A program made the translations under genes and the position numbers. From Deltaproteobacteria bacterium (lineage in GTDB: Bacteria; Myxococcota_A; UBA9160; SMWR01), in assembly GCA_032128115.1 (NCBI GenBank), contig JAQBHB010000093.1, forward strand, positions 42,577 through 106,576: a DNA stretch of 64,000 nucleotides, given 5' to 3'. Positions 8,929 through 61,489 of this stretch are shown here, one piece after another. The notes under the pieces were generated by a model. The model searched no databases and was not told the origin of the DNA. It saw only the letters and a program-made list of their open reading frames with translations. Within the stretch, counting starts at the first letter, position 1. Each line of letters starts with the position of its first letter.

Positions 8929-8956
8929 TTGACCCCGCGGGAATGCCTTTGATAGC

Positions 8957-46175: not shown

Positions 46176-48341
46176 TCAGTGGGGTGTCTCCACCCAGGCG
46201 CGCCCCTCGCGATACATCGCCAGGCGTCCCTCGATTTCCGACGCGAGGTCGGCGCGCCCCACGGCCCTGGCGCGTTGCGATGCCTCCCGCGCCACGCGCA
46301 CGGCCTCGTCGAAACGGCCCGCGGCCGCGCAGCCCGCCGCCAGGGTGTCGAGCAGGGCCGGGTGGGGCGCCGCATCCTGCGCCAGGGCGGCACGCGCGAT
46401 CCGGATCGCCTCCTCGGGCTGCCGGATGTCGGCGGAGGGATGCGTGGCCAGCAGCCAGGCCAGGTTGTTTCCGGCGGTGCGAGACTCGGGCGCGAGCGCA
46501 AGCGCCGCGTAGAAGTGACGCACCGCGAGCTCCGGCTCGCCGGCAGCCAGGGACAGCTCGGCCAGGCTGATCTGGAGATCGGCTGACTGCACGCCGAGCG
46601 CGTCCGCGCGCGCAAGCTGCGGGCGCGCCTCCTCTGGGCGTTCCATCCGGATGAGCAGGAGACCCAGATTCGCCCGGGCTTCGCCCAGGGCCGGGTCGAG
46701 CGCGACGGCACGCCGGTAGTGATCCAGGGCCGCGTCGAGATCGCCCTGGTCGGTGAGCGCGCGCGCCAGCTGGGCGTGGATGCGCGGGCGGTTGACCTCG
46801 CGGGCCCGTTCGAGGGCGACGCGCAGCTGGCGCGCGGCGCGATTGGGGTGGCCGGTTTCCAGCAGCGCCATGCCCAGCTGAACGCGTGCGCGCGCATTCT
46901 TGGGGGCCAATTCCACGGCCTTCTCGAAGTGGCGCAGGGCGCCCGCGAGATCTCCCTGCTTTTCCAGCACCTCTCCCAGACCCAGCTCCGCGGCGGGCCA
47001 GCGCGGCTTCATCCGCGCCGCTTCGGCGTAGTGGTGCCCGGCTTCTTCGGTGCGGCCCTGCAACAGCAACAGACCCGCGAGCCCGTGGTGGGCCACGAAA
47101 TTGTCGTCGGTGACGGCCAGTGCCCGCTGGAACAGGGCCTCGGTGTCGCGCCAGTGTGCGAGCTGACGCGAGCTGACGAGGGCGAGCACCAGCATCGAGG
47201 CCACTCCGGCCGCGGACAAGGCGTTGCGACCGAAGCGGCGACCTCGCAGCAGGTCGCGGGCACCCCACGCCACCGCCAGGCTCGCTCCGATCAACGGCAG
47301 GTACATGTAGCGGTCGGCGCGGGCTTGCATTCCCACCTGGATCAGACCGATCACGGGAACGAGGGTTCCCAGCATCCAGAGCCAGCCCACGATCCACCAG
47401 GGTCGCGAGGCGGCCGCGCGGATCGCGGCGGCGGTGGCGCCCGCCAGGAGCACGCCGGCGCCGAGGCTTTGCGTCAGGGGGAGGCTGCGCAGCGGATGCG
47501 GATAGAACACCGCGAGCCCGCTGGGCCAGAAGCTCTTCAGCGCATACCAGACATAGGAGTGGAGGGCGTTCTGGAGACGGGGCCCCAGGGGCAGGGCGGG
47601 TTCCGGGGCCATGGCGCCGGTTTCGCGCTGCACCTGGAAGGTCACGAAGCAGACCGCGGCCGCGATTGCGAACAGGGGGATCTTCTCGACCACGGCGCGT
47701 CCCAGGCGACGCGGGTCGGGAGCCGCCCGCTGTGTGCCGTTTCCCAGCCTTGCCAGGGGCCAGTAGTCCAGCAATAGCAACACGAACGGAAGCGTCACCA
47801 GCATCGGTTTGGCCAGGAGACCCAGGAGCATCGCTACGGCCACCAGCAGGTAGCGGCCGAGCGATTCCGGCCGCCGGGTCCAGCTCACGTAGGCGTGCAG
47901 CGCGAGCATGAAGAACACCGCGCTCAGCACGTCCTTGCGTTCCGAGGCCCAGGCCACGGATTCCACGTGCAGTGGGTGCAGGGCGAAGACGGCGGCGGCG
48001 AAGGCGCTGGGCCCCAGGGCGCCGGTCATGCGCACGAGGACCGACAACAACAGCCATGTGCTGAGGATGTGGAGGGCGAAATTCGTGAGGTGATAGCCTG
48101 CGGGCTCGAGTTCGTGGAGGGCGTAGTCGAGCTGGAGGGAGATCCAGGTGAGGGGAATCCAGTTGGTCTCGTAGGGCGTGGTGAAGGCGCGCACGACACC
48201 AGAAAGACCTGCGGAAAGGTTCGGGTTCTCCAGGATGTAGACCCGGTCGTCGTAGTTGACGAAGTCGTGATTGCGAACCGGGAGGTAGACTGCACCCGTC
48301 ACGGCCACGAGCAGCAACGACACGAGTGCCTGGCGACGCAT
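46176..48341 (-). CDS. TMTC-like GT-C glycosyltransferase: PMT_2/DUF1736 membrane domain fused to C-terminal TPR repeats
   Basis: 721 aa. It has the loop-1 acidic motif FVNYDD, the DUF1736-like HPLHVESVAWASERKDVLSAVFF, roughly 10 TM helices and roughly 8 TPR units (ALRHFEKAVELAPKNARARVQLG...). Confidence 0.7.
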   Translation of the reverse strand: MRRQALVSLLLVAVTGAVYLPVRNHDFVNYDDRVYILENPNLSAGLSGVVRAFTTPYETNWIPLTWISLQLDYALHELEPAGYHLTNFALHILSTWLLLSVLVRMTGALGPSAFAAAVFALHPLHVESVAWASERKDVLSAVFFMLALHAYVSWTRRPESLGRYLLVAVAMLLGLLAKPMLVTLPFVLLLLDYWPLARLGNGTQRAAPDPRRLGRAVVEKIPLFAIAAAVCFVTFQVQRETGAMAPEPALPLGPRLQNALHSYVWYALKSFWPSGLAVFYPHPLRSLPLTQSLGAGVLLAGATAAAIRAAASRPWWIVGWLWMLGTLVPVIGLIQVGMQARADRYMYLPLIGASLAVAWGARDLLRGRRFGRNALSAAGVASMLVLALVSSRQLAHWRDTEALFQRALAVTDDNFVAHHGLAGLLLLQGRTEEAGHHYAEAARMKPRWPAAELGLGEVLEKQGDLAGALRHFEKAVELAPKNARARVQLGMALLETGHPNRAARQLRVALERAREVNRPRIHAQLARALTDQGDLDAALDHYRRAVALDPALGEARANLGLLLIRMERPEEARPQLARADALGVQSADLQISLAELSLAAGEPELAVRHFYAALALAPESRTAGNNLAWLLATHPSADIRQPEEAIRIARAALAQDAAPHPALLDTLAAGCAAAGRFDEAVRVAREASQRARAVGRADLASEIEGRLAMYREGRAWVETPH

Positions 48342-48350
48342 CGAGGCGGC

Positions 48351-49838
48351 CTAGTCCGACCGGGTGGGCTCGCCCTCGCCAGGCTGTGCCGTGTCGGAGG
48401 TTCCCGGTTCCGGAGCGTCCACGTATCCCAGGGCCTGCAGGGCATCGAGATCGTCGGAGGAGAGCTGTTGGGGAGTCTCGTCCCGCAGCTCCAGGCCCTT
48501 GCGCAGGATCATCAGGCGCTTGCGCAACGAGGAGGCGATCTCGGGAGCCGGGGCTACCAGATTCACCGTCTCCTTCCCCCTTCGGAAGAGCTGGCCGTGT
48601 CCCACGGTGCCTTCCAGGGAGACGATGAACTTGTAGTCCCCGTCCACTACGGCGAATCGACGCACGGCGCCCGCGCCCAGCGTCGCCATGTACGGGACGC
48701 TGTTCTCCGCATCGGCGCCCAGCGCCAGCACGTCCCGACCGCGGGGCGACCCCTCGGGCATCACGCCCAACAGGGAAAGCACCGTGGGGTAGAGGTCCAC
48801 GGCCGACACCAGGTCGTCGCGCCGCGCGGGACGCAGCTCCGGGGAGCGCACCATCAGGGGGACCCGCACGAAGGCATCCATCAGGTGCTCGCCGTGGGAG
48901 AACCAGTAGTCGCCCTCGCCCAGGGCTTCGCCGTGATCGGCCGAGAACACCACGAGGGCGTTGCGGTCGAGCCCGCGCTCACGCAGGCCGTCGAGCAGGC
49001 GCCCGACCTCCCGATCCATATAGGCCACCTCGGCGGCGTAGCCCGCGCGGTAGAAGGCGATCTCATGCTGGCCGTCCAGATACTGGTATCGGGGGATGGC
49101 GCCACGCCCGCTGTCCCCCGTCCCCTGCAGGGGGAGGCGTCGCAGGCCGCCCTCGACCCCGCGCTCGCGCGCAAGCTGAGAGTCGCGGGAGCCCGCCGGC
49201 GGGGTGTATGGCCCGTGCGGATCCTGGTAGTGCACCCAGACGAAGCAGGGCGTCGCCCGGCCATCGGTGCAGGCATCCAGCGTACCCAGGAAGGCGTCGG
49301 TCGTGTCGACCGCGACGCGTTCCGGCCAGCGGCGCACCGCTTCACGTTGGGGGAAGTCGTCGTCGTAGACGTCGAATCCGGCCGCGAGTCCCGACGAGGC
49401 CCGCAGTACGAAGTTGCTGACGACCGCGGCGGTTCGCCAGCCGTGTTGCCGCAGGCTGGCCGCCAGCGAGGGCACGTCTGCCGGAACCGCCGACTCGTTG
49501 TTGATGAGACCCAACTCTTCGGGATAACGCCCGGTGAGCAGAGCGCTGATGGAGGGGAGGGTGAGCGACGTGGCGGAGTATGCGGCTGTGAAGACGACGC
49601 TCTCGTCCGCCAGGGCGTCCAGATTCGGCGTCAGACCGCGGTCGCTTCCGTAGGCGCCCAGGTAGTCGGCGCGCAGGGTATCCACCGTGATCAGGACGAA
49701 CAGGCGAGGCGCGGGCGGACTGCAGCCCGTCCCCGCGGCGGTCAGGGTGATGGCCGGAAACACGGCGACGAGAAGGGTCGCGACCACCCGCGCCAACGCG
49801 ACCAGGGCCGGCTTCCGGGGGGTCCGCGGGCGCCTCAT
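48351..49838 (-). CDS. Sulfatase-fold (alkaline-phosphatase superfamily) lipoprotein with Thr in the nucleophile position
   Basis: It has a signal/lipobox region (LTAAGTGC), metal-site ITVDTLRAD and SATSLTLPSISALLTGRYP. The last aligns with CxPSR of true sulfatases but reads T-L-P-S-I. HGEALGE lies later in the sequence. The start was chosen at 49838. Confidence 0.75.
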   Translation of the reverse strand: MRRPRTPRKPALVALARVVATLLVAVFPAITLTAAGTGCSPPAPRLFVLITVDTLRADYLGAYGSDRGLTPNLDALADESVVFTAAYSATSLTLPSISALLTGRYPEELGLINNESAVPADVPSLAASLRQHGWRTAAVVSNFVLRASSGLAAGFDVYDDDFPQREAVRRWPERVAVDTTDAFLGTLDACTDGRATPCFVWVHYQDPHGPYTPPAGSRDSQLARERGVEGGLRRLPLQGTGDSGRGAIPRYQYLDGQHEIAFYRAGYAAEVAYMDREVGRLLDGLRERGLDRNALVVFSADHGEALGEGDYWFSHGEHLMDAFVRVPLMVRSPELRPARRDDLVSAVDLYPTVLSLLGVMPEGSPRGRDVLALGADAENSVPYMATLGAGAVRRFAVVDGDYKFIVSLEGTVGHGQLFRRGKETVNLVAPAPEIASSLRKRLMILRKGLELRDETPQQLSSDDLDALQALGYVDAPEPGTSDTAQPGEGEPTRSD

Positions 49839-49981
49839 GGAGATCGGAAACGTAGCACGCCGCCGGCCCGGGGCGGCTGTGGGGCTGCCCGCATTGCCCG
49901 CTGCGCGGGCGTGTGCGATGGTGGTCTGCCGCCGAATCCCACCATGTTTCTTCGCACCTCGCGCCATCCGGAACCCGCCCG

Positions 49982-51604
49982 ATGACGGACCCGATCGGCG
50001 CCCTGCCTCGCGGCGCGCTCACCGCCGTCCTGGTCGCTGCCAGCGTGCTCTTCGTCGCGTTGCGAGCGCCCTACTGGTCGGTTCCCCTGGAGCGCGACGA
50101 GGGCGAGTACGCCTACGTGGCACAGCGCATGCTGCAGGGCGAGGTTCCGTACCGCGACGCTTTCGACCAGAAGCCGCCTGGCGTTTTCCTGGTCTACGCC
50201 GCGGCGTTCGTCGCGTTCGGCGAGTCGATCGAATCCATCCATGGAATGATGCACCTCTTCAGTGCGGCCACCGCCCTGGTGTTGTGGTTGCTGGTGCGTC
50301 GCCTGGCGGGAGACGCCGCTAGCGCCTTTTCGGTACTGGCTTTCGCCGTGATGTCCACCGACTCGCGGATCGTGGCCACGGCGGCCAACACCGAGATCTT
50401 CATGCTGTTGCCCCTCTCGCTCTGCATGCTTGCACTGGTGCGAGCGCTGGAGGACGGTCGGGCGCGCTGGTGGCTGGCGTGCGGTGCGTTCGCGCTGGGC
50501 GCGTGCTGGATCAAGCAGGTGGCGGCGGTCAACACGGTGTTCGTGGGCCTGTTCGCGGTGGGAAGTCTGGTCCGGCGGCGAGCCGGGGCCAGGCGTGTGC
50601 TTCGCGCGGTCGCTCTCATGCTGGCCGGCGGTGCTGTGGTCTCACTGCCGCTCGCGGCGTACTTCGCGTGGCATGGAGCCTGGGCGGAGTTCGTGGATGC
50701 GGTATTCCTGCACAATCTGGCGTACAGCCAACGCATGTCGTGGGCGGCCGGATGTCGCAACGCCTGGATCGCCCTGGGACACCAGGCCCCGAGCCTTGCC
50801 GTCTTCTGGATCCTGACGCTCGCGGCGATCGTCTGGCCGCGCGCGGCGCCGCGCGAGATCCGGATCCTGCTGGCGGGGTGGACCGTGGCCTCCCTGCTGG
50901 GGGTGTCGATCGGGCTGTATTTCCGGCCCCATTACTTCATCCAGATGCTGCCGCCGCTGGCCGCCGCCGCGGGCGTGGCGGCCGGGGCAGTGGTGGGGGC
51001 CCTTCCGGCCCAACGGGCCCTGGTGCGAGGCGCGGTCGTGGCGGCTGCGATCGGAGTGCTTGGCGCGCCCGCCGTGGTGGCCAACTGGGCAACCCTGACT
51101 GCCGGGTCCCCCAACGCCGTGTCGCGCAGGATCTACGGACTGAACCCCTTCCCCGAGTCCCTGGAGATCGCCAAGTACATCCGGCGCACCAGTTCCCCGG
51201 ACGATTCGATCTACGTGATGGGATCCGAGCCCCAGATCTTCTTCTACGCCGAGCGCCGGAGCGCTACCCGTTACATCTTCTTCTATCCGTTGATGGGGGC
51301 ATTTCCCGACGCGGGCCAGCGACAGCGGGAATTGATTCGCGAGGTCCAGGCCGCGAATCCACGCTATGTGGTGGTTGCCAACCTTTCCACGTCGCTGATG
51401 GCGAACTCCAACACGGATCCCTACGTGTTCGACGAGACGAGGCGCTGGCTCGCGCGCCACTACCGGCTCGAATTCGTGGCGATTCCCCAGGCCGGGAAAC
51501 GCGAATTCGATTTCATCTACGGGAGCGGCGCTCGCGCAGCCATGGGCGATTCGGACGCTCGAGCGGCGCCCCGGGCCTGGGTCGCGGTCTTCCGGCGCTC
51601 CTGA
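49982..51604 (+). CDS. GT-C fold membrane glycosyltransferase (ArnT/PMT-like, GT39/GT83-type)
   Basis: About 540 aa. It has a first-loop acidic motif ERDEGEYAYVAQRMLQGEVPYRDAFDQKPPG, roughly 11 TM helices and a soluble C-terminal domain. Confidence 0.65.
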   Translation: MTDPIGALPRGALTAVLVAASVLFVALRAPYWSVPLERDEGEYAYVAQRMLQGEVPYRDAFDQKPPGVFLVYAAAFVAFGESIESIHGMMHLFSAATALVLWLLVRRLAGDAASAFSVLAFAVMSTDSRIVATAANTEIFMLLPLSLCMLALVRALEDGRARWWLACGAFALGACWIKQVAAVNTVFVGLFAVGSLVRRRAGARRVLRAVALMLAGGAVVSLPLAAYFAWHGAWAEFVDAVFLHNLAYSQRMSWAAGCRNAWIALGHQAPSLAVFWILTLAAIVWPRAAPREIRILLAGWTVASLLGVSIGLYFRPHYFIQMLPPLAAAAGVAAGAVVGALPAQRALVRGAVVAAAIGVLGAPAVVANWATLTAGSPNAVSRRIYGLNPFPESLEIAKYIRRTSSPDDSIYVMGSEPQIFFYAERRSATRYIFFYPLMGAFPDAGQRQRELIREVQAANPRYVVVANLSTSLMANSNTDPYVFDETRRWLARHYRLEFVAIPQAGKREFDFIYGSGARAAMGDSDARAAPRAWVAVFRRS

Positions 51605-51690
51605 GGATCCGCGGCCGGTATGCGATAAGCTCGGCACGGCAGTTTCACGGCCCCCCGTTTGCGGACGGGCCCGCCACAGGAGGGATTCCA

Positions 51691-52473
51691 ATGAACCGCA
51701 TCACTTCGGGACTTCTCGTCGTGTCCATGGCGCTCCTCGCCAGCGCCTGCGTGGTGATCGAGGATGGCGAGGTCGGTGTATCCAAGAGCTTCGGATCCAT
51801 CCGCGACGAGCCGGTGGGTCAGGGCATCGTGATCCAGGTGCCGGTGATCCGGACCGTGGAAACCTGGGACGTCAAGCTTCAGGAGCTGAAGGAGACGGCG
51901 CAGGTGCCGTCGTCCGAGGGCCTCATCGTCGGCCTGGATACCTCCATGTTGTTCCAGGTGCAGCCCGAAATGGCGCCGAGTATCCGCAAGACGGTGGGGT
52001 GGAACTACGTGAACACCCTGATCGTGCCCTATTTCCGCAACGCCGTGCGCGACGTGGTGAGTGGATATCCGGTGCGGAACATCTACGGCGAGGAGGGCCG
52101 CAAGGAGATCGCCCGCAAGGTGCGTGAGTTCCTGATCGAGAACCTGGAGCCCCGCGGCATCATCGTGGTGGACGTGCTCCTGCGCGACGTGAAGCTCCCG
52201 GAGAAGTTCAAGGATTCGATCGAGGCCAAGCTGACCGCCCAGCAAGTGGTGGCCCAGAAGCAGTTCGAGCTCGAGCAGGCCAAGAAGGACGCCGAGATCG
52301 AGGTGGCCCGGGCGAAGGGCGCCGCCGAGGCCCAGGAAATCGTGCGCTCGACCCTGAGCGACTCGTATCTGCAGTACCTGTGGATCAAGACCCTGAACGA
52401 GAATCCCAACGTGATCTACGTGGCCACCGAGGCCAACATGCCGATCTTCAAGAATGCGGCCGGGAGACGCTGA
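51691..52473 (+). CDS. SPFH/Band-7 (prohibitin-type) lipoprotein
   Basis: It has an AGGAGGG SD, and MNRITSGLLVVSMALLASAC carries a lipobox. An SPFH core and a coiled AQQVVAQKQFELEQAKKDAEIEVARAKGAAEAQ segment follow. Confidence 0.85.
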   Translation: MNRITSGLLVVSMALLASACVVIEDGEVGVSKSFGSIRDEPVGQGIVIQVPVIRTVETWDVKLQELKETAQVPSSEGLIVGLDTSMLFQVQPEMAPSIRKTVGWNYVNTLIVPYFRNAVRDVVSGYPVRNIYGEEGRKEIARKVREFLIENLEPRGIIVVDVLLRDVKLPEKFKDSIEAKLTAQQVVAQKQFELEQAKKDAEIEVARAKGAAEAQEIVRSTLSDSYLQYLWIKTLNENPNVIYVATEANMPIFKNAAGRR

Positions 52474-52476
52474 GCT

Positions 52477-53853
52477 TCAACGCCGGCGCATGCGATAGAC
52501 GACGCGTTCCGACCCGACCAGGGGTGTGGCGTCCTCCAGCGTGAAGCGCGTCGCGAACGCGGCCTCGAAGCCATTGCGGCTGTAGTCGGGAAACACGTCC
52601 TCGCGGGTCGCCAGCATGGTCTGGACCCTGGGATCGCTCTTGGGCACGAACTCGACGATCAGACCCTCGGCCAGATCGGCGAAAAAACTGGCCACCTGGG
52701 GCAGGGGCACGTTGTTTCCGATGGCCAGGTGGTGCACCAGGGCCAGGGCCAGCAGCGCGTCGGCGCTCGCGCGATCCGCGAGCGAGGCGCGCTCCGCGTG
52801 GGCCCAGCCCAGCGCCGGACTGGGGTTGGTGAGATCCAGGACCAGCGGCAGCAGCTTCGACTCGCCGGTGTCGCGAGCGCGCCGGTAGCTGCGGTCGATG
52901 CAGGCCGGATCCTTGTCAAAGGAAATGGTCTGGATGCCGCGCTCGGAGGCGATTCGACTGAACTCGCCGGTGTTTGCGCCCAGGTCCCAGACCCGGCCCG
53001 GCGCCAGCGTGTCCAGGTGCTGGGACACGAGTCGTTGCTTGTGCTCGTGGGATGCCGGGGCGTAGCTGACACCCGCTGCGTAGTCGGCCCACTCGGTGCC
53101 GTCTGCGCGCCAACGGAGCCTCTTCACCGCAGACTCGAGCGCGCGGATCAGGTTTGCGTGGGCGGACTTCGAGAGCGGGCGCACCTTGGCGGCGGCGTCC
53201 GTGTCGGACCGGTAGCGCTGCTGGTATCCCGCGTGCATCCGGATGTGAAGGAACAGGTGCACGTTCAGCCAGGCCCGGGCTGGAAGCAGGCTTCGCGCCA
53301 GGTCGAGCGGGATTCCGTCCAGGTGGACGCGCAGCAGGCTCGAGAGTCTCACGTCCCGATACGCCATGAGCGCCAGGGGCGCCAGGAAGTGCTGGCAGAA
53401 CTGCCGGTACCCGACCCACGGAGACCCCTCCCGGTAGCGCTCGAAGGAGAGCGTGTCGATCCACAGCGGTCGGCCCCGGTGGAACTGCACGTTGTAGGCG
53501 CTGGCATCCTTGAGGGTCATATCGAAGCGCAGCGCCAGCTGTTGCACCTGCAGGGTGGCCAGTGCAGCATCCTGAAGCTGGCTGAACGACCACTCGTAGG
53601 GGTACGACACGAAATCCACGCGCTCGGGTCGCAGGATGCGGTGGGCTTCGCCCCGGGAGGCGGGCTCCCCTCGGGCTTCTTCGTGGGGGATCAGGAGATT
53701 TCGTTCCGTGAGCTCCCGGTACAGGCCGGATTCGACCAGGTGGTCGTAGTCGGGGGCGTATCGGGGGTTCACCTGGCGGTGAAGGATCCCGTCCCGCTCG
53801 AAGACGAAGCCGCTGGGGTCTCGGAAGGAGGAGCCGAGGGGCTCGTCAGCCAT
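52477..53853 (-). CDS. Two-domain protein: N-terminal protein-kinase-like fold + C-terminal class I SAM methyltransferase
   Basis: The N-terminal half has a Brenner-like LKDASAYN (D-x4-N) followed by LWIDTLSFE. The C-terminal half has MTase motif I VWDLGANTGEFS and post-I ISFDKD. The ATG at 53853 overlaps the upstream small ORF stop by 8 nt; the longest ORF start is 53868. Confidence 0.6.
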   Translation of the reverse strand: MADEPLGSSFRDPSGFVFERDGILHRQVNPRYAPDYDHLVESGLYRELTERNLLIPHEEARGEPASRGEAHRILRPERVDFVSYPYEWSFSQLQDAALATLQVQQLALRFDMTLKDASAYNVQFHRGRPLWIDTLSFERYREGSPWVGYRQFCQHFLAPLALMAYRDVRLSSLLRVHLDGIPLDLARSLLPARAWLNVHLFLHIRMHAGYQQRYRSDTDAAAKVRPLSKSAHANLIRALESAVKRLRWRADGTEWADYAAGVSYAPASHEHKQRLVSQHLDTLAPGRVWDLGANTGEFSRIASERGIQTISFDKDPACIDRSYRRARDTGESKLLPLVLDLTNPSPALGWAHAERASLADRASADALLALALVHHLAIGNNVPLPQVASFFADLAEGLIVEFVPKSDPRVQTMLATREDVFPDYSRNGFEAAFATRFTLEDATPLVGSERVVYRMRRR

Positions 53854-54133
53854 CGTTGCGACGTGCACCCTTCTCGTCGTGGGAGGCTCTCTCGTCGTGG
53901 GCGGGCATCTGGGCGGGTCGGAAGAACTTCACGATCCTCTTCCAGTACGCGTTGAGGGCCACCACCGCGCCCGCGATCATCGCCACCAGGGCCTGCAGGA
54001 TGAAGCTCCCCGCGCCAGGATCCACATAGGCGAGGCGGAGCGCGGTTGCATCCAGTGTTGCAGCCGAGGCGGCGAGCCCCGTGGATGCCACCAGGGCCAG
54101 GGCGAGGACCAGAGGGCGTCGGCAGCGCGGCAT
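53846..54133 (-). CDS. Small membrane protein (95 aa), signal/anchor + one TM, YVDPGAGSFILQ motif
   Basis: MPRCRRPLVLALALVASTGLAASAA, then YVDPGAGSFILQALVAMIAGAVVAL, then a basic tail. It appears translationally coupled to the downstream methyltransferase gene. Confidence 0.45.
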   Translation of the reverse strand: MPRCRRPLVLALALVASTGLAASAATLDATALRLAYVDPGAGSFILQALVAMIAGAVVALNAYWKRIVKFFRPAQMPAHDERASHDEKGARRNDG

Positions 54134-54234
54134 GGAGTTCCTCGGATGGGTCGCGAATGCCCCCGTGGGCCCCATTGTGCCATTCTCCCCATCCCGCTTT
54201 CAACCGCGGCGCGCGGCGGGGGGTAGGGTTGTGG

Positions 54235-56100
54235 GTGCCATTGGACGCCGAAGCCACCTCCCACGGCGACCCGGTCCGCCGGGCGATCGATGTGCTCGGC
54301 CCCCTCGGCCTGGTGGCGCTGTTCGCAGCGCTGGCAGCCTGGAGCTGGGGCAAGTGGACCGATGTCCAGATCGATTTCGGTACCGAACTCTACCTGCCGT
54401 GGCGGATCAGCCTGGGCGATGCCCTCTATCGCGATCTCGCATCGCGCAATGGGCCCCTGTCTCATCATCTGAACGCGCTGTGGTTCCTGCTCTTCGGGGT
54501 CTCGTTGCGGACGCTGGTGTTCGCCAACCTCGCGATTCTCGCGGCGATCTCCGCCATGACCTGGGCGATCTTCCGAAGCGCTTGCGGTGCGGCGACCGCG
54601 ACCGGGGTGTGCGCCGTCCTGCTGACCGTTTTTGGCTTCTCCCAGTATGTGGCCATCGGCAATTACAACTATGTGACGCCCTATCAGCACGCCCAGACCC
54701 ACGGTCTGGCGTTGTCGATCGCGATGCTGCTGGCCCTGGCCCGGTACCTTCGGAGCCGTCGCCTCGGGTGGATGGCACTCGCCGGGGCGTGTCTCGGTCT
54801 GGTGCTTCTCACCAAGGCGGAGATCGCGGTGGCCGCGGTTTCGGCTGCCGTGGTGGGCGGGGTGTGCGTCGGCGTGTCGGAGCCGCGCGATCCGAAGCGG
54901 TGGGCGAAGCTCGCGCTCGCGTTCGCCGGCGCTGCCTGCGTTCCTCCGCTGCTTGCTTTTGCCTGGCTCGCGGCGTGCATGCCGCCGGACATGGCCCGCG
55001 TCGGCGTTCTCGGTAACTGGGCCTACCTGGACGTCGACCTGGTGAGGGATCATTTCTACGTGCACGGCGCGGGCTTCGATCGGCTGGGTGCGAACCTGGC
55101 GCGGGCGCTGGGCATGGGTCTCGCGATCGGCGCACTTCCAGCGGCGGCGTGGGCCGTGGAGCGCACCGCACCACCCGGTCGCTGGCGGACTCCGGCCGCG
55201 CTGGTCGCGGCAGGTCTCGGCTACGGCATCCTGGCGGCCCCGGGGGTGGTGCCCTGGCTGCAGGTGCCTCGGGGCCTGCCCGTCACGACACTTGCCATCG
55301 GCACCGCGGTGGCCTCGATCTGTTGGCAACGGCGAGGCGACCGGGAAGCCGTGGCGCAGTGGGGGCCGCTGGTGCTGTGGTCGGTCTTCGCCCTGGTGCT
55401 GCTGGGCAAGATGATCCTGCGCGCCCGCATCCACCAATACGGTTTCGCGCTGGCGATGCCCGCGACCCTGCTGCTGGTGGCGGCCCTGGTCCGCCTGCTT
55501 CCCGCCTGGTCCCGCGCGCGCTTGCGCGGCGGCTTGTTCAGTCTGGCGCTGGGACTCGCGGGGGTGGCGGCGGGGGTTGGTTTCTACCTGCAGCGATCGA
55601 ACGACTTCTACGCGCACAAGGACTTCGCGGTGGGAAGCGGCGGCGATCGCCTCCTGGTAGAGCCGGCGCCGGTGAACGCCCGCGGGCCGCGGGTGGCCGA
55701 GACGCTTGCGCGCCTGGGGGAGGTCGCCCCGGTCGGCTCGAGTCTTCTGGTTCTGCCTGAGGGGCTGATCCTCAACTATTGGCTTCGACTTGAAAATCCA
55801 GCCCGGTATGGTCTCTTTCTTCCAACCGAAATCGCTGCCGCGGGGGGCGGCGTCGCCATGTTGGATGACGTGCGCGCGGCCGCCCCCGACACCATCGTGT
55901 TGATGCACCGGGATCTCGCCGAGTTCGGGACACCGGCGTTCGGAAAAGCGTTGAGCAGTGGCCTCGAAATATTCGAGTGGGTGCAGGCCCACTACGAACG
56001 CACGCTGCTCATCGGCCCGCCGCCGTTCGGCGATAGCTTCGGCATCGAGATCCTCCGCCGCCGCGCGGGCTCGGGCGGACCTTCCTCAGGGCTCGACTGA
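54235..56100 (+). CDS. GT-C-like polytopic membrane glycosyltransferase (ArnT/PMT-like)
   Basis: About 620 aa. It has a first-loop acidic segment DVQIDFGTELYLPWRISLGDALYRD, 12 or more TM helices and a C-terminal soluble domain. The start is uncertain (GTG 54235 or TTG 54241). Confidence 0.5.
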   Translation: MPLDAEATSHGDPVRRAIDVLGPLGLVALFAALAAWSWGKWTDVQIDFGTELYLPWRISLGDALYRDLASRNGPLSHHLNALWFLLFGVSLRTLVFANLAILAAISAMTWAIFRSACGAATATGVCAVLLTVFGFSQYVAIGNYNYVTPYQHAQTHGLALSIAMLLALARYLRSRRLGWMALAGACLGLVLLTKAEIAVAAVSAAVVGGVCVGVSEPRDPKRWAKLALAFAGAACVPPLLAFAWLAACMPPDMARVGVLGNWAYLDVDLVRDHFYVHGAGFDRLGANLARALGMGLAIGALPAAAWAVERTAPPGRWRTPAALVAAGLGYGILAAPGVVPWLQVPRGLPVTTLAIGTAVASICWQRRGDREAVAQWGPLVLWSVFALVLLGKMILRARIHQYGFALAMPATLLLVAALVRLLPAWSRARLRGGLFSLALGLAGVAAGVGFYLQRSNDFYAHKDFAVGSGGDRLLVEPAPVNARGPRVAETLARLGEVAPVGSSLLVLPEGLILNYWLRLENPARYGLFLPTEIAAAGGGVAMLDDVRAAAPDTIVLMHRDLAEFGTPAFGKALSSGLEIFEWVQAHYERTLLIGPPPFGDSFGIEILRRRAGSGGPSSGLD

Positions 56101-57489
56101 CGCCGCGTTCCGGTAGAGCGCCCAGTGGAATCCGGAGATCGCGGCGTGCGGGAACTCCGCCACCAGCGTGTAGAGGTGGCCCCGATCGTCGCGGATGCTC
56201 TCCGGCACCCGGGCCGGGTTCTCGAGCGCATGCCGGATCACCCATTCGGGTCCTCCCGGCGGCCGCTGCTCGGCCGTGCGGTAGTCCAGACGTCGGTTCG
56301 CCGGGAGCTCGCGCGCGTAGAAGCGCAGAACCGTTCCGTTTCGGAAGTCGTGGTCACTCGAGACCACGATCGCGGGCGAATCCGTCTCCCGCGCCATCCG
56401 CAACAGCGCCTCGCGATACCCGCCGCGCCCGTACTCGAGGAAGCCCCGGATGTGGACGGCGTTGCCCGCCAGGAAACCCGCCAGGAGCACCAGACTCGCG
56501 ATTCGCCGCGCCCCTCCCCGCCGGTACAGGTCGCCAAGCAGGAAGGCCGAGAGCAGCAGCAACAAAGCGAGCGAGATCAGGAAGTAGCGGACGGCCACCA
56601 CCTCGGGTCGCAGGCTGAGCATCACCGCGACGGGCGCGATCCCGATGGCGATCGCGTACAGGATCCAGCTGTCGTCGCGCTGGCGTCGCAGCTGGCGGAT
56701 CCCGAGCGCGAGAAGGCTCGCTCCCAGGCAGGCGTACGCGAAGCCCAGGTCGCGGCTCACCCGAAGCCCCAGGCCGAAGCCGAACGTGCGCGCCAGGACC
56801 TGGTCGGCGACTGCGGGAGGGCCTCCGCCCACGGTCATCGTGTGCAGGTCGACGGCGTACAGCGCCGCCAACCCCACCAGCGGCAGGACGTGGAGCGCGG
56901 CCAGGGCCCTCACGGCGCCGGGGCGTTGCCCCAGTTGTCGCCACGACCAGACCACCGCACCCGCGTAGAAGAAGCCGAAGGCCAGGTGCGACAGGAATCC
57001 CAGAAGGGCGCTGACCGCGAACAGGGCGCGGCACCCGGGCCGGTCGCGTTCGAGGGCCCAGAGGCAGATCAGCGCGAAGAACACAGCGTACGCGTAACCG
57101 CGTGCCTCGGAGGAGAAATGCACCAGGGCGAACGACCCGGCCGCGAGCCAGGCCGCGAATACCGCCTCCGGGCGGCCCTTCCGCCAGGCGATGGCCGCCG
57201 CCAGGCCCACGCTGGCCACGCCGGCCGCGAACGCGGGCACCCGGTACCACCACCAGTCCACATGCTCGCCCAGGGCGTAGTAGATCAGGGTGTTCAGATG
57301 GTGGTTGTTCGACTGGTGGATCCGCGTGAACACCTGCAGCGGCGAGTCCAACATGCGCATGCTGGACCAGGTCCAGATCTCGTCCAGCCAGAAGTCGCCG
57401 AAGACCGGGGGCCATCGCACCGCGGCAGCAACCGCCACCGCGGCGAGGCAAAGCGCCAGGGCGAGCCGCGACCGGGTTGTTTCGCTCAC
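56086..57489 (-). CDS. GT-C fold membrane glycosyltransferase (GT39/83-like)
   Basis: 467 aa. FWLDEIWTW acidic loop-1 motif, roughly 10 TM helices and a ~110-aa C-terminal soluble domain. Its start overlaps the stop of the upstream paralogue by 4 nt. Confidence 0.6.
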   Translation of the reverse strand: MSETTRSRLALALCLAAVAVAAAVRWPPVFGDFWLDEIWTWSSMRMLDSPLQVFTRIHQSNNHHLNTLIYYALGEHVDWWWYRVPAFAAGVASVGLAAAIAWRKGRPEAVFAAWLAAGSFALVHFSSEARGYAYAVFFALICLWALERDRPGCRALFAVSALLGFLSHLAFGFFYAGAVVWSWRQLGQRPGAVRALAALHVLPLVGLAALYAVDLHTMTVGGGPPAVADQVLARTFGFGLGLRVSRDLGFAYACLGASLLALGIRQLRRQRDDSWILYAIAIGIAPVAVMLSLRPEVVAVRYFLISLALLLLLSAFLLGDLYRRGGARRIASLVLLAGFLAGNAVHIRGFLEYGRGGYREALLRMARETDSPAIVVSSDHDFRNGTVLRFYARELPANRRLDYRTAEQRPPGGPEWVIRHALENPARVPESIRDDRGHLYTLVAEFPHAAISGFHWALYRNAASVEP

Positions 57490-59003
57490 CGCCGCCTCTC
57501 ATGGATCACCACGCCCTCGTAATCGCTCACACTTTCGAAGTGGTGGATCCGGATGTCCTCGCGGTTGCCCCAGGCGATGTCCGGAGCCGCGAGGACGTGG
57601 CGGTCGTAGACGTCGGGAGACAGGGATTCCAGCAGGATCTGTCGCACCCGTCTCTCCTCCCGGGTGTGGGCGTGGCGGCGCAGGATCAACCACTCGGCGT
57701 TCGCGGCCGGCGTGAGATCTTCTCCGGTGAGACCGCCCACGACCCGGAGATCGGTGTAGAACTTCACGGGGAGATCGCCATAGGTGATCGCCAGCGTATC
57801 GCCGGGCCGCGCGTGTTGGCGCAGGAATTCGACGATCCCCTCGATGGGACCGTCGTAGTCGTGGCTGAGCTCGTGGAGATAGGGAAACAGATTGCCGCAG
57901 ACGGCCACCCAGAGGACGATCAGCGCAGCGCCCAGGAGCCGCGAGCGGCGGATCACGGCGCCCACTGCAAGCCCCGCCAGCAACAGAAGAGGCGGCGCCA
58001 GGGGTGCCAGGTAGCGCACGTAGGCGCCCGGGCTGGTGAGTGACAGGGCGGCCACGGTGACACCGCAGTAGAGCACCAGCAGCCACACGCCGCTTCGGGT
58101 GGCGCCGTCGGGGCCAGCTGCAGGTCTGCGGGCGATGGCGCGCCAGAGCAGGATTCCTGGCGGCACCAACAGGAACAGCGGGTGCAGGAAATCCGAGAGC
58201 GCGAGGCGCAGGTAGCGTCGCGCGTAGCGCAACGAACTGGCCGGATCCAGCAGGCGATCCGCGTAGTTCGCATGGTAGTTCCCGCTCCCGAACCACACGA
58301 TCCAGGGCGCGTTGACCGCTGCGGTGGCGATCGCCGCGATCAGCGTATCCCTGAATCGGCTGCGCTCGAAAATCGCAGCGTGGATCAGCAGGGCTGCAAG
58401 TGTAGTCGCCGCGTACAGGTAGTGGCTGTGGAAGAGCAGGGTGGCGGCGATCCCCAACAGGACGATCGGCTTGCGCGAGCCCGGCGTCAAACGCGTGTAG
58501 GCGTGCAGGGCCAGCAGCGAGAAGAAGGCCGCCGCCAGATACCAGCGAGACTGTCGGGCCAGGAGCAGGAAGGGCACGCAGAGCGCCAACAGGATCGCCG
58601 CGGCCAGCGCCGAGCCGCGGTCGCGCCACAGGGCCAGGCCCGTGAAATACGTGAGCAGCACGCTGGCGATGCCCAGGAGCGCGAAGGGCAGTCGCGCCGC
58701 ACCGGCGCTCTCTCCGAACAGGGCGAACGACGACGCCACCAGATAGAAGGACAACCACGGATGCCACTTCCAGATGCCGTCGTCGCCGTACTCCGCCCCG
58801 AGTTCCTGGGAGAAGGAGTTGCGGCCATCGCTGCCCAGGGGAATTCCGTTCTCCAGGGTCGAGCGTGCCAGGAGTGCCGTCTGGGCCTCGTCCTGCCACA
58901 GGTAGCGGTTGCCCAGACCGGGGAGCAGGAGCGCCGCCGCCAGCAGCAGCAACAGCATCACTTGGATTGGTTCGACGCCTCGAAGGGCCTGGCTGAGACG
59001 CAA
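57486..59003 (-). CDS. GT-C fold membrane glycosyltransferase (GT39/83-like)
   Basis: 505 aa. LWQDEAQTALLARSTLENGIP acidic loop-1 motif, roughly 11 TM helices and a C-terminal soluble domain. It has a TTG start at 59003, with an alternative ATG at 58958. Confidence 0.65.
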   Translation of the reverse strand: MRLSQALRGVEPIQVMLLLLLAAALLLPGLGNRYLWQDEAQTALLARSTLENGIPLGSDGRNSFSQELGAEYGDDGIWKWHPWLSFYLVASSFALFGESAGAARLPFALLGIASVLLTYFTGLALWRDRGSALAAAILLALCVPFLLLARQSRWYLAAAFFSLLALHAYTRLTPGSRKPIVLLGIAATLLFHSHYLYAATTLAALLIHAAIFERSRFRDTLIAAIATAAVNAPWIVWFGSGNYHANYADRLLDPASSLRYARRYLRLALSDFLHPLFLLVPPGILLWRAIARRPAAGPDGATRSGVWLLVLYCGVTVAALSLTSPGAYVRYLAPLAPPLLLLAGLAVGAVIRRSRLLGAALIVLWVAVCGNLFPYLHELSHDYDGPIEGIVEFLRQHARPGDTLAITYGDLPVKFYTDLRVVGGLTGEDLTPAANAEWLILRRHAHTREERRVRQILLESLSPDVYDRHVLAAPDIAWGNREDIRIHHFESVSDYEGVVIHERRR

Positions 59004-59146
59004 CGGTCACCCCGCCACGCGGGTCCCGGAAGTGGGCGCCGCGCGAGGATAGCGAGGCCCGCGCGGGCCCGACGCGTGTCGGGTTCGCGGCGCTATGAGG
59101 TACCGTGCTTCGCTGCACAGGATCCAGAACGGGAGGGCGCCGGGCG

Positions 59147-61489
59147 ATGAAGCCGGGTAGATTGGGAGGCGGGCAGGCGATCCGGATCCTCGCTCCGACC
59201 GGCCTCTTCCTGCTGGCGTTCGGGATTCGCGCCCTTCCCTGGCGCGCGGTGCTGGACGGGAGCCAGACCCACCTGTTCGGCAACGACGCTTTCTACCACT
59301 TGCGCCGCATCGCCTACTCGGTTCAGAACTTTCCCGACATCCTCGAGTTTGATCTCTACATCAATTTTCCGGACGGGGCAGTTCCAATCTGGACTCCGTA
59401 TCTGGATTGGATGATTGCCGGGATCATGGTCGCGGTGGGGATCCGGGACATGGAGGTGGTGGAGCGCGCGGCAGTCTGGCTGCCGCCGCTCCTGGGTGCG
59501 TTCACGGTCCTGACCCTGTATCGGGTCGCCCGCCGCCACTTCGGAGGGGCGACGGCCGCGGGGGCCGGCCTGATCCTGAGCCTGCTTTCCGCCCACTTCT
59601 GGTATTCGCAGATCGGTTTCGTCGACCACCACGCCGCGGTGGCGTTGGCGTCCACGCTGATTCTGGGCGCGGGCATGGCCCTGGTGTCGCAAGACGGAGC
59701 GTCCGGGTCCGGATGGGGGAGCGGCTGGCCCGCCGCCATGGCCACTGGAGTGGCCCTGGGGGTCAGTCTGCTGGTGTGGCCGGGAAGCCTGCTTCACGTC
59801 GTGCTGGCTGAGACTGGCTTCCTGGGATTCCTGCTCAGCCGCCGCGATCGCGCGGGCGCGGACGGATTCGCGCTGCGATGGATGGTTGCCAACGCGGTGG
59901 CGCTTGGGGTGGTGCTTCCCGCGTCCCTGTCCAGCCATTGGCCCCAGTGGGGCCGTTTCAGTCCGGTGGTCCTCACGGGCTTCCAACCGTGGCTGTTCGG
60001 TGTGCTGCTGGTGTTCGGCGGGATCTGCACGGGCCTTTGGCGCTCCCGGGTCGCCGGCTCGGGGCTCGCACGCCGGGCGGGCACCGGGCTGGCTGTTGGC
60101 GTGGCATTGCTCGCCGTCAGCGCATGGCTTCTTCCCGAGCTGGGGACCGGCGCCGAAGACGCCTGGCGTTGGATCGCCAAGCGCGAGAACTTCCAGGTGC
60201 GAGTGGCCGAATCCCAGCCCCTGTTGTTCCAGGGCGGCCACTTCGTGGGCGACGTGGCGTCGTCGCGCTTGTCGTACTTCGTTTTCGTGTTCCCGCTGGC
60301 CCTGGGGATCGCCGCCCGTTCCGCGCGCCGCGAGGGCGCGCCGCTGGGATTGTTCGTGTGGTGGTCGGCCGGGCTGTTCCTGGTGACGCTGGTACAGAAG
60401 CGCTTCTTCAACTCTTTCTCGGTATCCCTGGCCCTGATGATGGCCTGGAGTGTGCGTTGGGCTCTGGCGGCACTTCCCGAGCCCTGGCGCAGCGATCCGA
60501 CCCGATGGAATGCGGTCCGGGTGGCTGCGTGCGCGATCGTGGCGGCGTGTCTGTTTCCCACGCTCGCCAGCTACCGGCCCTACCTGGTGAATCAATGGCG
60601 CCTCGTGGGAGACGAAAATCTCCAGCTCGAGAATTCCTCGGCGCTACGGCGAGCCAGCGAGCAGGCGGCGCGCTGGCTGGAACGCTACTCCGTGAAGACC
60701 TCGGGCTGGCTGGACGAGCGCGTTCCGGAATACGGGGTGCTGGCCCCCTGGCCCATCGGCCACGTGATCGAATACCGGGGCCGGCGTCCCACGGTCACGG
60801 ACAACTTCGGCGACGACATCGGGGAGGAGAATTTCGAGAAGGCCAGGCGTTACTACCTGGCGGACGAGGAGGCGGCCTCTGAGATCCTGGAAGAGCTGGG
60901 TGTGCGGTACGTCTTCGCCCAGTCTGCCGCAAACTTCCTGGGCGAGGAGCCGGGCCGCTACTCCATGTTCCACGGCCTGTATGAACTCGATGGGATCGGT
61001 TTCGATCCCCCGGAAGACGATTCCGCACAGGGGCGCGTCAAGCCCCTTGCGCGGCACCGCCTGATCTACGAGTCCAGCCACCTGGCCCAGATGGGCCCGG
61101 GCAAGCCGGCCAGCTTCAAGATCTTCGAGTTCGTGGGCGGCGCCCAGATCGTTGGCACGGCGGCCCCGGGGGCCCTGGTGCGGGCAAGCGTTCCGCTTCG
61201 CACCAACCGCAAGCGAGACCTGTTGTACGCAACGTCGACGCGGGCCGACGCACGCGGGCGCTACGTGCTCCGGGTTCCCTACGCCAACGAGGGAGGGCCC
61301 ATGGCGACCCAGGTAGGCCCGGTCTACCAGCTCGAGTGCGAGGGTCAGATGAAGACCGCGATCATCTCGGAGGCCAAGGTCAAACGGGGCGGAAGCGTCC
61401 GGGGGCCACGCCTGTGCCGGCGCCCGGGTCGCAGCTCCGACGATGCGCCGGAGCGCGAATCGAGTCGCGCCGGGCCGGCGCTGCTATAG
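59147..61489 (+). CDS. STT3/AglB/PglB-family oligosaccharyltransferase-like protein with a degenerate WWDYG motif
   Basis: GNDAFYHLRR (first acidic motif, AglB-like D-x-x-YYH-R), GFVDHH (second acidic motif) and VAESQP (SVSE/TIXE-type EL5 motif, 60203-60220). PWPIGH (60746-60763) sits where WWDYG(H) is expected, followed by TVTDNFG. The ATG at 59147 lies 9 nt after GGGAGGG. Confidence 0.65.
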   Translation: MKPGRLGGGQAIRILAPTGLFLLAFGIRALPWRAVLDGSQTHLFGNDAFYHLRRIAYSVQNFPDILEFDLYINFPDGAVPIWTPYLDWMIAGIMVAVGIRDMEVVERAAVWLPPLLGAFTVLTLYRVARRHFGGATAAGAGLILSLLSAHFWYSQIGFVDHHAAVALASTLILGAGMALVSQDGASGSGWGSGWPAAMATGVALGVSLLVWPGSLLHVVLAETGFLGFLLSRRDRAGADGFALRWMVANAVALGVVLPASLSSHWPQWGRFSPVVLTGFQPWLFGVLLVFGGICTGLWRSRVAGSGLARRAGTGLAVGVALLAVSAWLLPELGTGAEDAWRWIAKRENFQVRVAESQPLLFQGGHFVGDVASSRLSYFVFVFPLALGIAARSARREGAPLGLFVWWSAGLFLVTLVQKRFFNSFSVSLALMMAWSVRWALAALPEPWRSDPTRWNAVRVAACAIVAACLFPTLASYRPYLVNQWRLVGDENLQLENSSALRRASEQAARWLERYSVKTSGWLDERVPEYGVLAPWPIGHVIEYRGRRPTVTDNFGDDIGEENFEKARRYYLADEEAASEILEELGVRYVFAQSAANFLGEEPGRYSMFHGLYELDGIGFDPPEDDSAQGRVKPLARHRLIYESSHLAQMGPGKPASFKIFEFVGGAQIVGTAAPGALVRASVPLRTNRKRDLLYATSTRADARGRYVLRVPYANEGGPMATQVGPVYQLECEGQMKTAIISEAKVKRGGSVRGPRLCRRPGRSSDDAPERESSRAGPALL

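Follow-up and report, generated by a model that had tools for sequence, protein, structure and literature searches.

A 64,000-nucleotide stretch of contig JAQBHB010000093.1 (assembly GCA_032128115.1, positions 42,577–106,576; hereafter the window), from an uncultured marine Myxococcota/"Deltaproteobacteria" metagenome-assembled genome (MAG), carries a 15.3-kb locus of ten genes, G1–G10, in which all six large polytopic proteins (G1, G3, G7, G8, G9, and G10) are GT-C-fold glycosyltransferases. One of them, G10, represents a large bacterial AglB-like family that lacks the WWDYG motif. The kind of system, GT-C-based extracytoplasmic glycosylation with an STT3-family member, is a known one. We lean towards reading the locus as a periplasmic glycosylation module of variable gene content, in which the enzymes are all GT-Cs, the donors are made elsewhere, and the acceptor is probably protein.

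GT-C enzymes use donors linked to polyprenyl phosphate or pyrophosphate (polyprenyl-P/PP) on the extracytoplasmic face of the membrane. In all six proteins an acidic motif directly follows the first hydrophobic segment, in the first extracytoplasmic loop (EL1): FVNYDD in G1, ERDEGEY in G3, DVQIDFGTELY in G7, FWLDEIW in G8, LWQDEAQ in G9, and GNDAFYH in G10. An initial annotation of this DNA had singled out these motifs and taken the six proteins for GT-Cs. All six motifs prove to be conserved in relatives, and the assignments by PMT_2 (G3, G7, and G9), by STT3/AglB (G10), and by structure prediction (G8 and G1) bear the proposal out; none of the six is a transporter.

Profile searches place G3, G7, and G9 in PF13231 (PMT_2, ArnT-like enzymes of the GT39/GT83 clan), with scores of 54.7, 33.9, and 31.3 bits, respectively, against a gathering cutoff of 26.1. 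ERDEGEY is present in four of the five G3 orthologues found, the orthologue in L050 having ERDEGDY (L numbers denote loci with G10-family genes). The G7 motif is kept as D-x-x-(I/V)-DFG-x-ELY in ten orthologues, including those in the paralogous loci L012, L021, and L039, and LWQDEAQT is invariant in five orthologues of G9. The sole NCBIfam match of G9, to TIGR03663 (Agl23), reached 28.5 bits against a cutoff of 126, and membership of G9 in that family was rejected. When the six proteins were compared with each other by phmmer, clear kinship was seen only between G3 and G7 (7e-7) and between G8 and G9 (1e-5). That the six are nearly undetectable to each other by sequence rules out tandem duplicates and points to six subfamilies, suggesting distinct linkages rather than redundancy.

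For G8 and the N-terminal domain of G1, sequence methods gave nothing useful, and both are called GT-C because their predicted structures superpose on solved GT-C enzymes. G8 has no match in Pfam (even at E<=10), NCBIfam, or the PDB sequences, and phmmer or profile searches of the PDB sequences with the G1 N-terminal domain, G8, or G5 returned nothing or noise. The G8 family comprises at least 264 homologues, many of them sharing contigs with G10 homologues and a few carrying precomputed PMT_2 matches; hhalign of the G8 family gave a probability of 49% against G9, and 49–57% across the comparisons with G9 and the G1 family. The AlphaFold2 (AF2) model of G8, with a predicted local distance difference test score (pLDDT) of 93.7, had 22 Foldseek matches in the PDB at E<=1e-3, every one of them a GT-C. 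ALG12 was the best (E 2e-6, TMq 0.61), followed by yeast and human STT3, ALG9, ArnT (TMq 0.58), AglB, AftA, PglB, and DPY19. D36 and E37 of the EL1 motif are kept in at least 90% of 38 homologues, and W-L-D-E is present in 12/12 copies adjoining G10-like genes. G8 thus represents at least one GT-C family overlooked by current libraries of hidden Markov models (HMMs).

G1 consists of a polytopic N-terminal domain of ~400 aa, with a DD motif in EL1, and a periplasmic TPR domain, a C-terminal region matched by about 20 TPR-type Pfam families. Its N-terminal domain (residues 1–420) has no Pfam match at E<=10, DUF1736 (PF08409) included. The initial annotation had called G1 TMTC-like (DUF1736 plus TPR); the TPRs, the DD motif, and the GT-C fold stand, while DUF1736 does not. 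The AF2 model of the N-terminal domain (pLDDT 86.9) matches Pmt4 best (E 1.6e-4), then AglB, STT3, PglB, ArnT, Pmt1/2, and DPY19. D31 and D32 are kept without exception in 38 homologues, and the segment FALHPLHVESV is similar to FAVHPIHT of TMTC3 (PMC7801869). The G1 family is very large (8000 of 8000 scored candidates at E<=0.001), its members being mostly named "TPR repeat protein", some of them with PMT_2.

G10 carries the Pfam domains PF02516 (STT3), PF22627 (AglB_core-like, E 2.5e-9), and PF18079 (AglB_L1, E 5.3e-16), the two AglB soluble-domain matches both lying above cutoff. Against TIGR04154, the archaeosortase-A-associated oligosaccharyltransferase (OST) model that covers euryarchaeal AglB, it scores 312 bits (E 9.4e-93) with a cutoff of 450, and so is a relative rather than a member. 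In phmmer searches of the PDB sequences G10 matched only archaeal AglB (Archaeoglobus fulgidus AglB-L, 3waj, E 1.8e-20), PglB and eukaryotic STT3 being absent from its matches at E<=0.01. The aligned motif pairs of G10 and A. fulgidus AglB-L are GNDAFYH/GNDPWYY, GFVDHH/GFNDHH, RVAE/TIAE, QKRF/QNRF, and APWPIGH/SWWDYGH; the HMMER alignment with 3waj ends just short of the DK/MI motif.

The G10 family forms 215 clusters at 90% identity, and an exhaustive search gave more than 150 representatives at 50% identity with E<1e-138 and 1743 matches with E<1e-30. Residue conservation was counted over 259 members. The catalytic D47 of EL1 is present in 246 of 246 ungapped members, each position of the second metal motif (D-H-H) in about 250 of 251, the Glu and Val of V-x-E, the TIXE/SVSE motif of EL5, in 257 and 248 of 259, respectively, and Q417 and R419 in all 259. 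R419 lies in the Q-x-R-F motif aligned with QNRF of A. fulgidus, and we take it to be a phosphate-binding Arg. The residues that serve catalysis and phosphate binding in archaeal AglB are thus all kept in the family.

The WWDYG site differs. This motif reads the +2 Ser/Thr of the sequon by binding it. In the G10 family another residue stands in place of its first Trp (Pro in 164 of 259 members, with Trp not among the six commonest residues), Asp occupies the third position in only 33 of 259, and only W, G, and H are conserved, as xW-x-x-GH; G10 itself has PWPIG. The minority with xWDxGH may represent the basal state. Judged by these residues, the members look like active enzymes under purifying selection that have lost the residues for sequon reading. 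The loss of WWD means that the acceptor rule of G10 must differ from N-x-S/T, and canonical N-x-S/T glycosylation is not to be assumed for an STT3-like protein without WWDYG. The initial annotation was right to call G10 STT3-like, and overlooked the missing motif.

To our knowledge, all STT3-family enzymes studied to date use WWDYG to recognize N-x-S/T. A large, conserved, and, by its residues, evidently active family without this motif would show how acceptor specificity in the superfamily can be rewired, and could supply enzymes with new site rules for glyco-engineering. We found no paper describing this bacterial AglB-like family, and literature searches for AglB or oligosaccharyltransferase with Myxococcota gave nothing relevant. 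Lombard (2016, PMC4973528) reported a few bacterial STT3 homologues only, nested within Euryarchaeota. Two MAGs each contain three AglB-like paralogues in differing contexts: L019, L032, and L045 in MFD05684.bin.2.192, and L026, L028, and L030 in OC6_3000m_MAG_334. Three paralogues per MAG imply several parallel systems per cell.

Examination of related genomes shows that these genes cluster repeatedly, in changing combinations. A scan with a G10 profile, one genome per species, gave 47 loci, all in MAGs that bear the label Myxococcota, Myxococcales, or Deltaproteobacteria, except for a few labelled Spirochaetales, Phycisphaerae, Proteobacteria, or "uncultured bacterium" and possibly mis-binned. 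The loci were searched with the window proteins and family HMMs, and Pfam-annotated neighbourhoods of eight further homologues were added. Orthologous loci share their flanks, with PopT-SRAP-SSS to the left and lpd-ogt to the right, and between these the GT-C content is mosaic. L025 and L052 contain G1 and G3–G10 without G2; L009 contains G1–G6 and G10; L003 contains G1, G2, G4–G6, and G10; and L007 contains G4–G7 and G10. L050 has G3, G7, G8, G9, and G10 and, downstream of lpd, a G2-like gene, L036 has G4 and G7–G10, L049 has G7–G10, L046 has G3, G4, G7, and G10, and L006, L011, and L051 have G8 and G10 only. The only recurrent units are G10 itself, G8-G10, and the trio G4-G5-G6. G8 lies directly upstream of G10; in 12 loci, among them the distant paralogues L022, L027, L028, and L045, it adjoins a G10-like gene. 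The AglB-like gene is the anchor of the locus, and the G8-type GT-C its most faithful neighbour.

Paralogous loci join the AglB-like gene to further GT-Cs and to GT2 synthases. In L053, about eight polytopic GT-C-like genes surround the AglB-like gene, and a GT2 matches PgfS (258 bits) and ArnC (175 bits). L054 encodes a polyprenyl synthase, a PMT_2 plus TPR protein, and an AglJ/PpgS-like GT2; L055 encodes two AglJ/ArnC-like GT2s, three GT-Cs, a Phosphodiest-family protein, and acyltransferase_3 proteins; L057 contains an AglB-like/PMT_2 operon. At the family level, the AglB-like enzyme is repeatedly linked to other GT-Cs and to polyprenyl-phosphate sugar synthases. The initial annotation had suggested that the donors are made elsewhere, an idea strengthened by the ArnC/AglJ/PgfS-like GT2 genes next to GT-Cs in these loci.

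Two further observations concern individual paralogous loci. In L053, the most GT-C-rich of them, a DUF2142 membrane protein (8044–9456) is encoded directly upstream of the AglB-like gene; we take DUF2142 to be another GT-C-like family. In L056 (973–7939), a G10 paralogue lies beside KdsA, an MsbA-like ABC transporter, LptF/G, and nucleotidyltransferases, a context that hints at a lipopolysaccharide (LPS) connection for that branch of G10.

The window has a G+C content of ~69%, which fills raw lists of open reading frames (ORFs) with spurious frames. Genes were therefore called by GC3 frame bias and then compared with independent calls on identical sequence, the window being identical to contig JAQBCR010000011.1 (MAG GCA_032125055.1) and also to a Logan contig. 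Each of the ten genes is present at or close to the place first annotated, and the likely starts of G2, G4, G5, G7, and G9 have been revised (Table 1). The order by strand is SDR←G1←G2, G3→G4, G5←G6, G7, G8←G9, and G10→lpd, so that the GT-C genes are spread over five strand blocks, not the four transcription units described initially. The 3′ ends of the convergent G7 and G8 share 15 bp (56086–56100), and the stop codons of G4 and G5 are 3 bp apart (52473–52477), which leaves no space for terminators between these convergent blocks. A recent horizontally acquired island was considered and dropped, since the G+C content of the locus (0.66–0.72) is that of the rest of the window.

Table 1. Genes of the locus and neighbouring features, in window coordinates
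Feature	Coordinates	Strand	Basis or remark
Lipoprotein-like ORF	40200–41780	-	Long Pro/Gly/Ala/Thr-rich linker, about eight Dx[DN]xDG calcium-binding-like repeats
PopT/DUF368 polyprenyl-phosphate transporter	41781–42836	-	3.3 kb left of the locus; PF04018, E 3.9e-41
Classical short-chain dehydrogenase/reductase (SDR)	45286–46125	-	adh_short, E 3.6e-29; 50 bp downstream of G1, same strand
G1, TMTC-like GT-C plus TPR	46176–48341	-	Fold, TPR matches
G2, sulfatase-fold lipoprotein	48351–49838	-	PF00884
G3, PMT_2 GT-C	49982–51604	+	PF13231
G4, SPFH/Band-7 lipoprotein	51691–52473	+	PF01145
G5, 458-aa cytoplasmic protein	52477–53853	-	Weak Methyltransf_23
G6, 95-aa protein with two hydrophobic segments	53846–54133	-	Overlaps start of G5
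G7, PMT_2 GT-C	54157–56100	+	PF13231
G8, GT-C of a family without Pfam, NCBIfam, or PDB sequence match	56086–57489	-	AF2 and Foldseek
G9, PMT_2 GT-C	57486–58958	-	PF13231
G10, AglB-L-type STT3 homologue, GT66-like	59147–61489	+	STT3, AglB_core-like, AglB_L1
lpd-like pyridine-nucleotide-disulfide oxidoreductase	61498–62898	+	Pyr_redox_2, Pyr_redox_dim; 8 bp past the G10 stop

The six GT-C genes lie within 15.3 kb, and no other was found among the scanned ORFs of the remaining 48.7 kb, which hold housekeeping genes; the scan left out short ORFs and some stretches, including ~13.6–14.4 kb (probably trpD) and ~27.4–38.7 kb (read by eye only). Pfam identifies trp and phe/tyr biosynthesis genes, LptD, and ribosomal protein S1 there, and MutS, an amidase, GlnD, XerD, ScpAB, and RluB were recognized by eye from the translations. 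The earlier statement that the window lacks GT-A/GT-B enzymes, Wzx, and Wzy holds for the scanned ORFs, among which we also found no initiating phosphoglycosyltransferase, WaaL, or ABC exporter. On this evidence the locus does not match a classical Wzx/Wzy or ABC-dependent O-antigen/EPS cluster, nor a pgl-type locus.

Among the accessory genes, G2 has the sulfatase fold (PF00884, E 2.8e-48, together with PF01663). Its TLPSI aligns to CAPSR of arylsulfatase 6hhm, as the initial annotation had read it, with Thr replacing the formylglycine Cys. With Thr at the nucleophile position G2 cannot make formylglycine, and it fails the motif C/S-x-P-x-R of formylglycine (S1) sulfatases, though the fold fits. 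A Thr nucleophile is typical of phosphotransferases and phosphodiesterases in the alkaline-phosphatase superfamily. G2 has weak NCBIfam matches to EptA, LtaS, and CptA (20–26 bits against cutoffs of 400–1200); it has a signal peptide with a lipobox and one N-terminal hydrophobic segment, without the multi-transmembrane (TM) domain of the EptA/LtaS type. These features make G2 a candidate phosphotransferase or phosphoesterase. Its orthologues stay near G10 in shifting positions (L003, L009, L044, L049, and L050).

G4 is an SPFH lipoprotein (PF01145, E 2.1e-32; lipobox LLASAC), as annotated, with orthologues of 71–79% identity in seven loci. G5, which has no TM segment and is cytoplasmic, shows a class I S-adenosylmethionine-methyltransferase signal in its C-terminal half (Methyltransf_23, 20.8 bits, below cutoff), and a profile of its seven orthologues matched nothing in the PDB but small methyltransferases, with E values no better than 0.04. 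The kinase-like half that had been proposed, which would recall the WbdD-like kinase/methyltransferase terminators of glycans, was not confirmed: its N-terminal 250 aa match nothing, even with the seven-sequence profile, and the resemblance in "LKDASAYN...IDTLSF" is one seen by eye only. G6 has no Pfam or NCBIfam match. In the related loci G5 never occurs without G6, and G4 joins them wherever the contig extends (L003, L004, L007, L009, L025, and L052). It is synteny alone that ties the SPFH protein, the methyltransferase-like protein, and the 95-aa protein to glycosylation.

Of the flanking genes, PopT matches two NCBIfam polyprenyl-phosphate transporter models at 107 and 93 bits, both below cutoff, and the order PopT-SRAP-SSS followed by the locus is retained in L003 and L046. 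It may be a carrier-lipid recycler that perhaps travels with the locus. The lpd-like gene adjoins G10 in 12 loci or more, overlapping it by 4 bp in L051 (12262–12265), and is probably co-transcribed with G10, for no obvious functional reason. The SDR gene, missing at the corresponding position in L003, may be co-transcribed with G2 and G1; its product could modify a lipid-linked sugar, or its presence could be mere coincidence. SDRs of ~30% identity also flank a distant G10 paralogue group (L015, L017, L018, L024, L029, and L056). The lipoprotein-like ORF next to PopT has no Pfam family and a 22-bit match to the Leptospira adhesin Lsa25.6. An exosortase H (XrtH) gene lies ~120 bp past the right end of the window, 2.6 kb downstream (L001, 9953–10597); with 88.6 bits it passes the cutoff of 86, and it is similar to archaeosortase B as well. 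An exosortase link, prompted by TIGR04154 and XrtH, was dropped because no exosortase occurs near any other G10 homologue.

We infer a single pathway, whose donors, sequence of steps, and acceptor would be as follows. Sugars would be activated on polyprenyl phosphate in the cytoplasm by genes outside the window, and the lipid-linked sugars flipped to the periplasmic face. There G1, G3, G7, G8, and G9 would each take a residue from a polyprenyl-P-monosaccharide and add it to a glycan that is growing or already attached, and G10 would move the lipid-linked glycan to its acceptor by a rule other than N-x-S/T. Envelope proteins would be the likeliest acceptors: protein is favoured because G10 keeps the C-terminal domains that form the peptide site in AglB, and because G1 is TMTC/PMT-like with TPRs. 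G2 would probably add or remove a phospho-substituent on the product, and the nearby PopT could recycle the released carrier lipid. The mosaic gene content may reflect diversification of glycan structure, as in surface-glycan loci. Three-component systems of a GT2, a flippase, and a GT-C are known to decorate bacterial glycans and proteins (review, PMC11127046).

The initial annotation had described a dedicated set of periplasmic transferases, and the main thrust of that description is supported, while a single system is unproven. Several findings weigh against it. The locus is divided into five or six strand blocks, with no single operon, and no common regulatory motif was found in its three divergent intergenic regions, which share only GC-rich 8–9-mers. 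No donor-synthesis, flippase, or candidate acceptor gene was found among the scanned ORFs of the window, and G4, G5, and G6 have no demonstrable glycan-related function. All the evidence comes from MAGs. The expectation that the genes co-localize in relatives is borne out in that orthologues cluster in related genomes; their membership, however, is mosaic, and in 26 of 50 G10-family loci no GT-C could be detected within 10 kb. G10 can evidently do without local partners, and co-location could be partly historical. Finally, the loss of WWD weakens the case for a protein acceptor.

A bolder version of the glycosylation module, which we put forward tentatively, is that a Myxococcota lineage acquired an archaeal AglB-L, rebuilt its acceptor site through the loss of WWD, and now uses it with a changeable battery of GT-Cs for en bloc glycosylation under a new acceptor rule, at protein sites other than N-x-S/T or on a non-protein acceptor. 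If true, this would be a bacterial counterpart of the ALG/STT3 line that works in the lumen of the endoplasmic reticulum (ER), and would add a third, mechanistically distinct bacterial branch of STT3-family glycosylation.

The same pathway logic would also serve a non-protein acceptor, such as LPS/O-antigen, exopolysaccharide, periplasmic glucans, or a glycolipid, with G10 being ligase- or hydrolase-like, so as to pass a glycan to a non-peptide acceptor or set free an oligosaccharide, and G2 adding phosphoglycerol or phosphoethanolamine. We think this rather unlikely, yet it is a serious rival, because WWD is lost across the G10 family and several members of the locus are ArnT/EptA-like: G3, G7, and G9 belong with PMT_2/ArnT, the model of G8 matches ArnT at the TMq given above, and G2 combines its Thr nucleophile with weak similarity to EptA, LtaS, CptA, and YejM. 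PglB can release free oligosaccharide, and OpgB, EptA, and GacH add phosphoglycerol or phosphoethanolamine. The host is a diderm with LptD, a G10 paralogue lies beside KdsA, the MsbA-like ABC transporter, and LptFG in L056, and the acyltransferase_3 genes of L055 are typical of polysaccharide decoration. Known three-component systems, moreover, modify O-antigens and cell-wall glycans (PMC11127046). What speaks for protein is that G10 retains the AglB_core-like and AglB_L1 domains, the peptide site in AglB, that the nearest fold of G1 is a protein O-mannosyltransferase with a TPR protein-interaction domain added, and that no Wzx, Wzy, WaaL, or ABC-exporter gene lies nearby among the scanned ORFs. 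We also know of no characterized STT3, AglB, or PglB member that glycosylates anything other than protein.

Less probable still is that there is no pathway, and that independent envelope-modifying GT-C paralogues (such as ArnT-like enzymes that modify lipid A or core, a TMTC-like O-glycosyltransferase, and an AglB relic), each with its own donor and target, have accumulated between housekeeping genes. Such an accumulation would account for the strand blocks without a common promoter motif, for the half of G10 loci that have no GT-C neighbour, and for the close relatives in which any of G1, G2, G3, G5-G6, G7, G8, and G9 can be missing; the G1 family, too, is huge and widespread independently of G10. 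However, a random spread would hardly put six GT-Cs into 15 kb when none was found in the other 49 kb, and the G8-G10 adjacency recurs in deeply diverged paralogue groups (37–60% identity). Separate paralogous loci again join an AglB-like gene, several GT-Cs, and GT2 donor synthases, and these recurring combinations argue for selection on linkage.

It is improbable that certain PMT_2-like proteins, above all G9 or G8, are not transferases and instead serve G10 as translocators or scramblases of lipid-linked sugars, as reported for archaeal Agl23. In favour of this, the only NCBIfam match of G9 is to the "flippase activity-associated protein Agl23" model, Haloarcula hispanica Agl23 translocated M5GN2-PP-Dol in proteoliposomes and rescued a yeast rft1 deletion (PMC11182771), and no recognizable flippase (Wzx, GtrA, MATE, or PglK) was found among the scanned ORFs of the window. 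Against it, G9 falls far short of the Agl23 cutoff, passes the PMT_2 gathering score, and, like G8, has a strictly conserved W-x-D-E at the position of the GT-C catalytic base.

Compared with known systems, the periplasmic glycosylation module most resembles archaeal N-glycosylation in its G10 component. Like A. fulgidus AglB-L (3WAJ), G10 has a 13-TM-type STT3 region, an AglB core, and AglB_L1 in the same order, with catalytic residues in common (D47, D-x-H, (T/V)-x-E, and the Arg of Q-x-R-F), and the GT2s next to its paralogues match AglJ and a Dol-P-hexose transferase best. In the archaeal system AglJ is a Dol-P-hexose synthase. Haloferax AglS is an outer-face GT-C helper of AglB, a pairing that parallels the OST with extra outer-face GT-Cs seen here. 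Unlike in the archaeal system, the host is bacterial, xW-x-x-GH takes the place of WWDYG, G10 reaches 312 of the 450 bits that TIGR04154 requires, the extra GT-Cs number five rather than one, no agl-type cytoplasmic glycosyltransferase genes lie in the locus, and the carrier is presumably undecaprenyl rather than dolichyl. The pgl system of Campylobacter likewise has a bacterial STT3-family enzyme, PglB, believed to have reached bacteria from Euryarchaeota (Lombard 2016, PMC4973528). PglB, however, has WWDYG and an MI motif and lacks the AglB_L1 domain, and the pgl locus encodes cytoplasmic GT-Bs, the initiating transferase PglC, and the ABC flippase PglK, none of which is present in this locus.

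Bacterial three-component systems (Gtr O-antigen glucosylation, ArnC/ArnT, GT136 ribofuranosylation, and streptococcal PgfS) likewise use GT-Cs with small periplasmic domains and undecaprenyl-phosphate sugars; GT2 synthases of the same type adjoin G10 paralogues, and strain-variable gene content is seen as in seroconversion loci (PMC11127046). They have one GT-C, rarely two, and no STT3/AglB homologue, whereas the present locus has six GT-Cs and no GT2 or flippase in the window. The mycobacterial GT-C clusters (aftA-embCAB, PimE, and AftB/D) are the best-known bacterial case of clustered GT-Cs acting in series on the outer face with polyprenyl-P-sugars, and AftA, AftB, PimE, and Emb are among the fold matches of the G8 and G1 models. 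They differ in their families (GT53, GT85, and GT87), in having no OST-like member, and in a cell-wall polysaccharide acceptor in another envelope type. Metazoan TMTC1–4, which are protein O-mannosyltransferases, share the architecture of G1, an N-terminal GT-C whose EL1 bears a strictly conserved DD motif and lumenal or periplasmic TPRs, features noted together with prokaryotic homologues in PMC7801869; the model of the DUF1736 loop, between TM7 and TM8, does not match G1.

N-glycan assembly in the ER lumen, in which ALG3/9/12 and ALG6/8/10 are followed by STT3, likewise combines several divergent GT-Cs with an STT3-family transferase on the non-cytoplasmic face, using polyprenyl-P-monosaccharides. 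ALG12 is the best PDB match of the G8 model, with ALG9 and STT3 close behind; the Foldseek scores are alike for ALG, STT3, ArnT, and AglB, so no specific orthology follows. The HMM assignments here are PMT_2, not ALG, and extension of a lipid-linked oligosaccharide before transfer would be hypothetical for the bacterial enzymes. Myxococcota often feature in scenarios of eukaryogenesis. With an OST homologue and five outer-face GT-Cs, this locus is the closest prokaryotic parallel to lumenal N-glycan assembly found here.

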